A stretch of 64,000 bases of DNA from sequence record MK524176.1, one strand, 5' to 3'. The notes beneath the pieces were generated by a model. That model had not been told where the DNA came from. It was given only the letters and a program-made list of their open reading frames with translations, and did not search any database. The stretch comes from Escherichia phage PHB11. Positions 20,116 through 21,793 of the stretch are shown piece after piece. Position 1 is the stretch's first letter, and each line of letters begins with the position of its first letter. A program made the position numbers and the translations under genes.

Positions 20116-20390
20116 GGCTACTGCCATCCTTCCATACATTACCTTACCTTACCTCACCTGACCTGACCTGACCCTACCTAACATTACCGTGCCACACCTC
20201 ACTTAAAAACCCTCTTAAAAGACTCTTAAGTGATGTAAGTCTCATTTTAATGTAGCTGAGACTAACTACCCATACCTGACCGAACATTACTAGGCCTTAC
20301 CAGACACTACAGAACAGGACAGCACCGCACCTTATTAAAAGACCCTGTTTAAAGACCTTTTAAAAAGGAGCCTCCGAAGAGGCTACCTAG
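20116..20390. repeat. Non-coding pentamer-periodic element E1 (copy 1 of 2)
   Basis: Starts GGCTACTGCCATCC; runs of NNACC pentamers (TTACC TTACC TTACC TCACC TGACC TGACC TGACC ...); conserved blocks C, B, A shared with 21519-21793; ends in GAGCCTC-CGAA-GAGGCTC hairpin. Confidence 0.7.
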
Positions 20391-20395
20391 TCAAC

Positions 20396-20836
20396 TTAGA
20401 AAGGTTTTCTACGTTGCTTGTTAATGTTAGCTTTCATAGCAGCTAAGTGGTTTTGCTGTTCAATCAGTCGTGAGCGTTCTTGATGGCTAAGTTCCATAGT
20501 GTTCACATTCTCAATAGCTTGAGTGGCTTGCTTTAAAGCTCGACCAATCTTACCAGACATTTTACGTTTTGCAATAGTTGCTTGATGTTTAGGTTCAACC
20601 ACACGATAACCAACACCCATTGAAGCAACCAGATAAATCTTCTCTTCTTTAAGAAGCTTCTCAATAAACTTCTCAAGTCGGTTTAGACGTGTAAGTGCAT
20701 AAGCCTTCATTTCATCTTCGTACTTAACAATGTCGCCTTGATAAGTTGGCTTCACAATACCTAAGAAGGTGTCCATCTCAGAATGTGATACAGTGTCACC
20801 GTAACTAAACTTTGCTGCTAATGCTTTTGTATTCAT
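20396..20836 (-). CDS. Hypothetical protein (cassette gene 2)
   Basis: 146 aa ORF, basic C-terminus; flanked by the E1/E2 repeat elements. Confidence 0.4.
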   Translation of the reverse strand: MNTKALAAKFSYGDTVSHSEMDTFLGIVKPTYQGDIVKYEDEMKAYALTRLNRLEKFIEKLLKEEKIYLVASMGVGYRVVEPKHQATIAKRKMSGKIGRALKQATQAIENVNTMELSHQERSRLIEQQNHLAAMKANINKQRRKPF

Positions 20837-20838
20837 AA

Positions 20839-21441
20839 TTAAACGTTACCTTCTGAAATAACTTCTACAGAAAAACGACCAAAGCGTGGACGCCAATCAC
20901 CTACACCACAAAGGTTACCAGCATTTTCCAGAACCATCAGGAGTTCCTCTCGTGTGATTTGCTCTTCATCGAACATCAAACCGAACTCTACAGACCAGTC
21001 ACGGAAGATTGGACGGTAGCTCATAACTCGTGCTGTACCAATCTTAACAGACTTAGCATAGATAAAGTCTGGATTCTTAGCAAGTTCTTGTGGGTTTGCT
21101 GGACAGTTCTTGATAGTCATTGGGAAGACTACATCTGTCAGCATAATGGCTCGGTCAATTACCTTACCAAGTTTGTTGAGTTTTGCACCAGACTTGATGC
21201 AAGCCTCAATCATCTCACCGTTCATAACAAAACCTAGTTGCTCATCGTAGTAACAAGAAGTTACCAGTTGGCTTTCTGCTAAGAGCGCATAGTCTTCGTC
21301 AGTCTTTTTACGTTTACTGGACAGAGACTTGTGATATTTTGTCAGAGGATTTAACGGGTCTGACAACGTATCGTTATGGCTCAGGAAAGGACGAGTACCA
21401 GTGATTTTGATATTTAACAGTTTCATAGCATTTAGCTCCAC
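20839..21441 (-). CDS. Hypothetical protein (cassette gene 1)
   Basis: 200 aa ORF with GGAG SD upstream; flanked by the E1/E2 repeat elements. Confidence 0.4.
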
Positions 21442-21518
21442 ACTTTAGTTGATTGTTAAGTTGTTTGTAAAGAACCCTCAACAGAAGACTCTTTAGAAAC
21501 TTGGTAGATTTTTAACGT

Positions 21519-21793
21519 GGCTACTACCATCCACCCATACCGTGCCACACCACACCGGACTATACCATGCCCAACCCTACTACACCAGACCTTATTAAAA
21601 GACCCTCTTAAAAGACCTTTTAAAAAGGTAAGTCTCATTTTAATGTAGTTGAGACTAACTACCCATACCTTACCGCACCGGACATTACCGGACCGCACAT
21701 CACCGCACCAAACCAAACATCACATTACCTGACCTCACCGCGCCTTACCATACCTCACTTAAAAACCCCTCTTAAAGATTCTTAAGTGATGCT
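21519..21793. repeat. Non-coding pentamer-periodic element E2 (copy 2 of 2)
   Basis: Starts GGCTACTACCATCC; NNACC pentamer runs (TTACC GCACC GGACA TTACC GGACC GCACA TCACC GCACC AAACC ...); same blocks as E1 but order A-B-...-C. Confidence 0.7.

Follow-up and report, generated by a model that had tools for sequence, protein, structure and literature searches.

Evidence for a complete SUSP1-clade VIPR locus of type II in Escherichia phage PHB11

Results

Genes and repeats at the locus

We analysed a stretch of 64,000 nucleotides of Escherichia phage PHB11 (sequence record MK524176.1), hereafter called the window, with a focus on two intergenic regions of five-nucleotide periodicity, E1 at the lower and E2 at the higher coordinates, and on the two-gene cassette between them. 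The window belongs to a Felix O1-like coliphage (Felixounavirus), and the 4 kb around the periodic tracts share 99.3% identity with Escherichia phage vB_EfeM_pEP20 and 93–97% with many Felixounavirus genomes. The genes of this neighborhood all lie on the minus strand, in the order DNA polymerase, DNA ligase, the two-gene cassette, a gp86 homologue, a helix-turn-helix regulator, dihydrofolate reductase and thymidylate synthase. The results described below indicate that positions 20052–21849 of the minus strand are very probably a complete type II locus of the Viral Interference Programmable Repeat (VIPR) system, belonging to the clade of phage SUSP1. The layout of the locus is a promoter (P1), two genes for guide RNAs (vrRNAs), vipr, the accessory gene vap1, a terminator, and two more vrRNA genes.

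VIPR, a CRISPR-like weapon with which phages silence DNA by means of guide RNAs, was first reported in two preprints of 2026 (bioRxiv 10.64898/2026.04.26.720920 (= PMC13142463) and 10.64898/2026.04.26.720927). A locus consists of vipr, which encodes a minimal RAMP protein of ~20 kDa with an RRM core, a G-loop and a thumb, a vap accessory gene, and vrRNAs of ~100 nt, each made of 9–16 YNNGG repeats and an invariable 3′ tail that is a pseudoknot in the SUSP1 clade; members have at least four tandem YNNGG repeats in the flanking intergenic regions and a tail of ~40 nt. Silencing takes place through an R-loop triplex on double-stranded DNA, on either strand and without a protospacer adjacent motif (PAM) (10.64898/2026.04.26.720920, 10.64898/2026.04.26.720927). 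For SUSP1, four vrRNAs were seen by small RNA sequencing (sRNA-seq), co-purification with Vipr was found by pull-down, and repression of matching DNA was shown with GFP and plaque assays (10.64898/2026.04.26.720920). The system itself is already described, on a phage with a 97%-identical Vipr. The first-pass annotation of this DNA had not recognized the elements as a described family, which was true until April 2026.

The periodic tracts are real and far beyond chance. Period-5 autocorrelation, computed in 60-nt windows across the whole stretch, peaked at 0.75 against a mean of 0.24 (standard deviation 0.06), and nearly all of the forty best windows fall inside 20106–20345 and 21521–21775, which are the two intergenic regions. 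In register, the plus-strand columns read A/C/C in 13–20 of the 15–21 pentamers of each tract, while the remaining two columns are mixed; the C fraction of this strand over the tracts is 0.31–0.35 and the G fraction 0.11–0.14. On the minus strand, which is the gene strand, each tract reads as (GGYNN)11–18 with conserved G-G-Y and hypervariable NN, followed by a 34-nt tail, so that the earlier expectation of GG-N3 repeats in minus-strand RNA was correct. In the complete pEP20 genome (88.7 kb), the four tracts are the sole period-5 tracts.

The strings, the three blocks A, B and C, their inverted repeats and the block order reported in the first-pass annotation were all found where it had placed them. 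Its picture of two shuffled elements of ~275 bp did not hold: a repeat finder resolved the locus into four copies of one module of ~90–130 nt (leader block A or C, tract, tail) in a 2 + 2 layout. Blocks A and C are homologous variants with 66–72% identity when compared together with the tracts, and block B and the string GGCTACT(G/A)CCATCC are reverse complements of 3′ tail pseudoknot types. Behind each tract stands one of two tail types, block B or the reverse complement of the opening string of E1 or E2, and the tails reach ~16 nt past the low-coordinate ends that the elements had been given, to 20100 and 21503. Promoter P1 immediately follows the stop codon of the DNA ligase gene and is oriented towards E2, the upstream vrRNA array, and vipr; the same string occurs, identical, in SUSP1 upstream of vrRNA1. 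A second promoter, P2, forms the downstream border of the locus. The proposal that both elements are transcribed leaders is compatible with E2, which is downstream of the strong promoter P1, and wrong for E1, which is not the leader of the next gene because it lies between the vap terminator and the promoter of that gene.

The elements are non-coding, as had been assumed. When coding potential was considered over the tracts, the candidate, an 86-aa open reading frame (ORF) at 21456–21716, was rejected as an artefact of the stop-poor tract, and relatives have stops in all frames. Spurious ORFs of this kind lie over vrRNAs in the window at 21456–21716 (minus strand) and 21517–21648 (plus strand), and at 4016–4150 of a related locus (L008). 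Several GenBank records place “hypothetical protein” coding sequences or “repeat_region” features over vrRNAs.

The guide code and the tail pseudoknot

Conservation within the clade was calculated from 35 distinct tracts of 14 related loci. In the GGYNN unit, the first position is G in 78% and the second in 98% of cases, the third is a pyrimidine in 100%, and positions 4 and 5 each have an entropy of 1.9 bits; the tracts are 10–18 units long. Since G-G-Y is kept while NN is randomized by selection, this pattern fits a code and not a fold.

For the tail, a gapless alignment of seven variants gave an H-type pseudoknot with one helix of 4 bp and one of 5–7 bp, and changes on both sides were seen at nine of the eleven pairs. 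Pairing was found in 94.8% of the cells, compared to 25–39% with the partners slid, and none of 500 shuffles matched the observed pairing or covariation score. The covariation supports the prediction that the tail folds as a pseudoknot. The predicted length of tract plus tail is 89–124 nt. A scan of positions 19000–23000 against Rfam at E ≤10 returned chance snoRNA-type matches only.

The two cassette proteins

The profile of the Vipr family matches one solved structure, PDB 36pp, “SUSP1 Vipr protein” (E 1.8e-80), and the 195-aa protein by itself shows 97% identity to chain 36pp_D from end to end (E 1.5e-127). The SUSP1 clade is defined by more than 90% identity to SUSP1 Vipr (supplement, 10.64898/2026.04.26.720920), which places the 195-aa protein, at 97%, within it. 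An independent AlphaFold 2 model of it (mean confidence, pLDDT, 94.4) matches Csm3 and type VII Cas7 chains with E ~1e-4 and a template-modelling (TM) score of ~0.5; the model is thus that of a RAMP similar to Cas7/Csm3. The solved SUSP1 complex shows Vipr protomers gripping every GGY base by base, the guanines via H17, D177, R138 and W178 (10.64898/2026.04.26.720927). These four residues are all present in the PHB11 protein, as are the other contact residues K33, R39, E71, M72, K82, G87, K88, C173 and R179, and the G-loop is conserved. The only named residue that does not match the cryo-EM paper is position 175 of the pyrimidine pocket, where PHB11 has Val, as does the SUSP1 chain deposited in the PDB. 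More than 500 homologues of ~190 aa share one common motif and a C-terminal loop.

The second protein of the cassette, of 146 aa, is 98.6% identical to the product of the SUSP1 gene directly downstream of vipr, which was named vap1 and enhances protection (10.64898/2026.04.26.720920). The 195-aa protein belongs to phrog_4652 and the 146-aa protein matches phrog_5926. Pfam, PADLOC and NCBIfam gave no family for either protein, and PHROGs gave only families without functional annotation. The minimal two-gene locus (vipr plus one vap) is confirmed, with DNA ligase and ordinary phage genes as neighbors, and the earlier view that the repeats belong together with the cassette is upheld, both being parts of one VIPR locus. 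Repeat scans found no CRISPR-like array; the RAMP fold is the sole feature in common with CRISPR-Cas, and the locus is not a member of those systems.

Association of the tracts with Vipr in other viruses

An exact-pattern scan of IMG/VR for (GGTNN)7GGT gave at least 120 loci. The matches listed are mostly degenerate tracts with varied NN, on contigs unrelated to Felix O1. The tracts at the listed loci are intergenic, and neighboring genes are encoded on the GGT strand at 100 tracts and on the other strand at 21. By tblastn, a Vipr homologue was found in the fetched flank at 44 of the at least 120 listed loci, with 24–45% identity outside Felix O1-like contigs, and therefore we consider protein and tracts to be a conserved module. 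GGYNN-type tracts next to vipr were also found in prophages and many unrelated phages.

Some other viral contigs are rich in tracts. One IMG/VR contig of 189 kb (L020–L023), as well as L039, L120 and L126, carries degenerate (GGTNN)n tracts in large number, and the parts that were fetched contain no vipr. Successive sugar-nucleotide genes of the 189-kb contig are preceded by a tract with a strong hairpin and a T run behind it. The other three have tandem arrays of three to at least eight units, each a tract plus a conserved segment, which resemble CRISPR arrays in appearance. These contigs are probably other VIPR types or dispersed arrays.

Predicted targets in an E. coli satellite

In the SUSP1 clade, 18 of the 20 assignable guides target an E. 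coli satellite phage, which bears tape-measure and baseplate genes related to those of SUSP1 (10.64898/2026.04.26.720920, 10.64898/2026.04.26.720927). With the tape-measure region of the window as query, an island was detected in the chromosome of 480 of 5,426 complete E. coli genomes, strain E47 being one example of a carrier; DNA and protein searches with another baseplate gene as query did not find the satellite. The island is ~10–14 kb long (L129 5000–19400 and its equivalents in L130–L133) and occupies at least three insertion sites, namely ymdF/wrbA, yciI/tonB and the inside of a DUF72 gene. Besides serine-recombinase genes and an HNH gene, the island has a tape-measure and a baseplate gene that in parts share ~86–91% identity with those of the phage itself. 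No vipr and no GGYNN tract were found in the five satellite loci, and vipr DNA was not found in complete E. coli genomes.

The NN codes were compared with these five loci in a window of nine units and with a threshold of at least 16 of 18 NN bases. When every third target base was skipped (xNN), eight distinct sites reached the threshold, as compared with one, none and none for skips of 0, 2 and 3 bases, and with a mean of 0.3 sites for guides with shuffled unit order. All but one of the eight sites lie inside the satellite islands of the five E. coli chromosomes, and no self-match under the skip-1 rule was detected in the window or in the full pEP20 genome. Units 1–9 of vrRNA-1 match 16 of 18 NN bases in the satellite tape-measure gene with a 1-nt skip (L129 from 12823, plus strand). 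The best match of vrRNA-2 is 18/22, in the tape-measure gene of L133 (12545–12576, minus strand; next-best 14–16). The vrRNA-3 guide matches 21/24 in the DNA adenine-methyltransferase gene of the satellite (L129, 6831–6865, minus strand; next-best 15–16), and units 1–10 of vrRNA-4 match 19/20 in the same small gene of L129 (from 10366, plus strand), L131 and L132, and 18/20 in that of L130. Worked out by hand from the annotated reading frames, the base left out falls on the third codon position with all guides except vrRNA-4.

The second half of vrRNA-1 behaves differently. Its units 10–18 match 2 of 18 bases at the site of units 1–9 and have no match elsewhere in the DNA scanned. The vrRNA-1 tract may be a fused or double guide.

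Relatives without vipr

The element is present in ~230 records of Ounavirinae (Felix O1-like phages) and vipr in ~117, and roughly half of the Felix O1-like phage records have a vrRNA module without vipr. The first-pass annotation had expected variation among relatives, and this was observed when presence and absence were compared, the number of units ranging from 1 to 5. In whole-genome tblastn searches, no vipr or vap was found in Felix O1a (L135+L136) or BPS17S6 (L137+L007+L138). Felix O1a has one complete vrRNA module between the ligase and gp86 genes (L005 2409–2690). It is a hybrid unit located exactly at the cassette site: P1 and block C correspond to the 5′ end of E2, whereas the tail and P2 correspond to the 3′ end of E1. 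BPS17S6 has two complete modules between the same genes (L007 2409–2828), also at the cassette site, with intact GGY in 10 of 13 and 10 of 11 units. Its guides match 18 of 18 NN bases in the satellite at L131 9311–9336 (minus strand) and L129 7032–7057 (plus strand), and they do so under the skip-1 rule only.

These hybrid units at the cassette site fit the earlier suggestion that the direct repeats could mediate loss of the cassette, and the data fit an architecture of repeated modules that makes vipr-vap easy to lose by recombination between units. The two units of BPS17S6 may be scars of very recent origin, or else guides that are used in trans. Because Vipr proteins are the starting point of the published pipeline, genomes without vipr fall outside it; relatives that lack vipr and keep vrRNA units, with those of BPS17S6 matching the satellite perfectly, may be a new observation.

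Feature coordinates and other observations in the window

Table 1. Features of the predicted VIPR locus in the window, listed in the direction of transcription.
Feature	Coordinates	Strand	Details
P1, sigma-70-type promoter TTGACA-16-TATACT	21822–21849	-	11/12 consensus matches
Leader/spacer block C before vrRNA-1	21755–21791	-	same block precedes SUSP1 vrRNA1 and vrRNA4
vrRNA-1 guide tract, 18 GGYNN units	21665–21754	-	NN code: AT AA GC GA CA AA GA TT TT GC GA GC CC AA CC GC AA AT
vrRNA-1 3′ tail, predicted H-type pseudoknot GUAG/CUAC + AGUCUCA/UGAGACU	21631–21664	-	block B
Leader/spacer block A before vrRNA-2	21592–21630	-	
vrRNA-2 guide tract, 11 units	21537–21591	-	NN code: CT GT AG TG AT AT CC GT GT AC AT
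vrRNA-2 3′ tail, predicted pseudoknot GUGG/CCAC + GGUAG/CUACC	21503–21536	-	reverse complement is the opening string GGCTACTACCATCC; tail identical to that of SUSP1 vrRNA1
vipr, 195-aa RAMP-family protein	20839–21426	-	
vap1, 146-aa accessory gene	20396–20836	-	
Intrinsic terminator after vap1, AGCCTC-TTCG-GAGGCT then T run	20362–20384	-	
Leader/spacer block A before vrRNA-3	20332–20368	-	
vrRNA-3 guide tract, 12 units	20272–20331	-	6/12 units with degenerate first G (TGT or AGT); NN code: GC GC CC TC AG CT AA CT AA TC CA AT
vrRNA-3 3′ tail, predicted pseudoknot	20238–20271	-	block B of E1
Leader/spacer block C before vrRNA-4	20199–20237	-	predicted terminator annotated here in the record of one relative
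vrRNA-4 guide tract, 13 units	20134–20198	-	NN code: GT AC AA TA AG CA CA CA GA AA AA AA AT
vrRNA-4 3′ tail, predicted pseudoknot AAGG/CCUU + GGCAG/CUGCC	20100–20133	-	reverse complement is the opening string GGCTACTGCCATCC
P2, sigma-70-type promoter TTGACA-17-TATTTT of the gp86 homologue	20052–20080	-	promoter annotated here in the record of a relative

Two further regions of the window were noted. The non-coding stretch 63300–64000 is dense in motifs of the CTTAAAAG / CTTATAAG / CTTGTTAG type at a spacing of 10–11 bp and includes a perfect tandem repeat of 22 bp × 2.6. The 12-mer CTTTTAAGAGGG occurs three times in the window, at 63867 and in vrRNA leader blocks at 20210 and 21603, and may be a shared protein-binding or promoter element. 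At 23639–24154 (minus strand), directly after the DNA polymerase gene, lies an ORF of 171 aa resembling an HNH/AP2-type homing endonuclease; in the record of the closest relative, the polymerase is annotated as two pieces around an endonuclease gene.

Discussion

Proposed mechanism and function

By near-identity with SUSP1, for which the two preprints demonstrated the mechanism, we infer the following course of events for PHB11. One Vipr protomer would bind each pentamer, building a helical filament on the vrRNA in which the protein flips out the GGY bases and holds them. The NN dinucleotides would be presented for pairing with a double-stranded DNA target, every third base of which is skipped, and the resulting R-loop triplex would block transcription of the target. 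The NN code matches a satellite whose tape-measure and baseplate genes are related to those of the phage, and for this reason the most likely function of the locus is that of a weapon which the phage directs at a parasite akin to itself.

Several points weigh against this interpretation. The vrRNA-1 tract, with 18 units, is longer than the 9–16 of the preprint, only its units 1–9 match a target, and in vrRNA-3 the first G is degenerate in half of the units. The match of vrRNA-2 (18/22) is borderline, and the base skipped in the vrRNA-4 target falls on codon position 2 instead of the wobble position. The scan covered five satellite loci, so better natural targets may have been missed. Furthermore, the ends of the vrRNAs, the function of leader blocks A and C, and the formation of a ribonucleoprotein are carried over from SUSP1 and should be read as presumed by analogy.

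Comparison with related systems

The similarity to the type II VIPR of SUSP1 extends through the whole locus. Vipr is 97% and vap1 98.6% identical, the locus occupies the same site, flanked by DNA ligase and the gp86/gp37 homologue, and P1, the leader blocks, three tail types, the terminator and the GGYNN guides are shared, as is the kind of E. coli satellite on which the predicted targets lie. On the other hand, the array is 1 + 3 in SUSP1 and 2 + 2 here, all four NN codes differ, one tract exceeds the stated range of repeat numbers, and SUSP1 is a Suspvirus whereas the host phage here is a Felixounavirus. The Class 1 CRISPR-Cas backbones (Cas7/Csm3 on crRNA) resemble VIPR in the RAMP fold with its G-rich loop and thumb, in the use of one protomer per fixed number of guide nucleotides with a thumb that breaks the duplex periodically, and in a variable guide capped by a constant structured handle. 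Unlike them, VIPR targets double-stranded DNA without a PAM (10.64898/2026.04.26.720920, 10.64898/2026.04.26.720927). It also lacks a CRISPR array, cas1/cas2 and all other cas genes, its guide is non-contiguous, with two of five nucleotides read and one of three target bases skipped, and it is encoded by phages and aimed at other mobile elements.

Two other systems share single traits with the locus. The TRAP sites in the trp leaders of Bacillus consist of (G/U)AG triplets with 2-nt spacers, and one subunit of the oligomer holds each triplet. Both systems have a 5-nt RNA periodicity in which a triplet is held and two bases are free; however, TRAP is a closed ring that acts in attenuation and its spacers carry no information, whereas in VIPR the spacers are the information. 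The promoter-early stem-loop (PeSL) cassettes of T4-type phages are short repeated modules that flank small variable gene cassettes and lead to gain or loss by recombination. PeSLs are promoter-plus-terminator units without a coded RNA product, whereas here the repeats themselves are guide-RNA genes.

Alternative explanations

The first-pass annotation had read the elements as cis-regulatory leaders, either two-tetrad G-quadruplexes or Rho utilization (rut) sites, that tune the downstream genes. Regularly spaced GG runs on the sense strand, a plus strand with 30–35% C and 11–14% G, and the transcription of E2 from P1 ahead of vipr would agree with such a role, which we nevertheless regard as highly improbable. 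The C-rich strand is antisense to every gene and to P1, and the transcribed RNA, being G-rich and C-poor, is the opposite of a rut site and therefore not one. The GG runs that would build quadruplexes are present, but each GGY is protein-bound in the solved SUSP1 complex. In addition, E1 stands after a terminator and before the next promoter, G-G-Y is kept while NN is randomized, and the NN code matches foreign DNA. A transcription-primed (R-loop) replication origin among the replication genes, suggested by the near-consensus P1, the AT-rich blocks and the strong excess of G over C on the non-template strand, has a next to negligible probability: the idea predates the identification of the protein, it leaves NN variability, pseudoknot, Vipr link and target matches unexplained, and the same tracts occur next to vipr in prophages and many unrelated phages. 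It was one of a group of candidates dropped after the match to PDB 36pp, the others being TRAP-like attenuation, a primase landing pad, a multi-Shine-Dalgarno standby site, a BREX GGTAAG decoy, a Chi-like or RecA-preferred GT-rich recombination hot spot, and a type III toxin-antitoxin system (RNA repeats, terminator, protein).

The variation among relatives, with 1 to 5 units, a vipr-vap cassette in about half of them, and hybrid units at the same site in phages without the cassette, could also mean that the units are PeSL-like mobile regulatory or recombination cassettes only, with no RNA product of their own. This is very unlikely, because it leaves unexplained the GGY/NN constraint and the covarying pseudoknot, the link to Vipr homologues of 24–45% identity in unrelated phages, and the target matches; stable Vipr-bound vrRNAs have already been demonstrated for SUSP1, and recombination is more plausibly a by-product of the way in which the array is built. 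A VIPR locus in partial decay, in which vrRNA-3 and the 3′ half of vrRNA-1 are non-functional remnants while some guides are active, deserves more weight and still appears rather unlikely to us. Half of the vrRNA-3 units begin with T or A, and the matchless units 10–18 of vrRNA-1 point in the same direction. Yet vrRNA-3 has the best full-length target match of all guides (21/24), the vrRNA4 of SUSP1 is equally degenerate (6/12 units intact), four vrRNAs of SUSP1 were detected by sRNA-seq, and clade-wide position 1 is G in no more than 78% of units. A complete VIPR locus is the reading that we prefer.

Implications

With VIPR, a second logic by which RNA guides the recognition of DNA has recently been reported, and the system has been proposed as an ancestor of CRISPR effector proteins; the PHB11 locus is a textbook case of it. 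A locus of this kind is recognizable in raw sequence by a 5-nt periodicity with fixed GGY and free NN, a pseudoknot tail, and a small RAMP gene between the arrays. For annotation practice, this means that no ORFs should be called on the stop-free, ACC-rich strand over the arrays. The NN codes are directly readable and can be used to predict which satellite or prophage a phage fights.

The relatives without vipr extend these implications. The vrRNA modules of genomes that lack vipr, Felix O1 among them, will escape discovery pipelines that start from Vipr. We put forward, tentatively and as something we doubt more than we believe, that vrRNA genes outlive a resident vipr or work without one, either in trans on the Vipr of a co-infecting relative or as decoys that soak up the Vipr of a rival. 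If this were true, recombination between units would be the route by which guides and vipr-vap are exchanged in the phage population.

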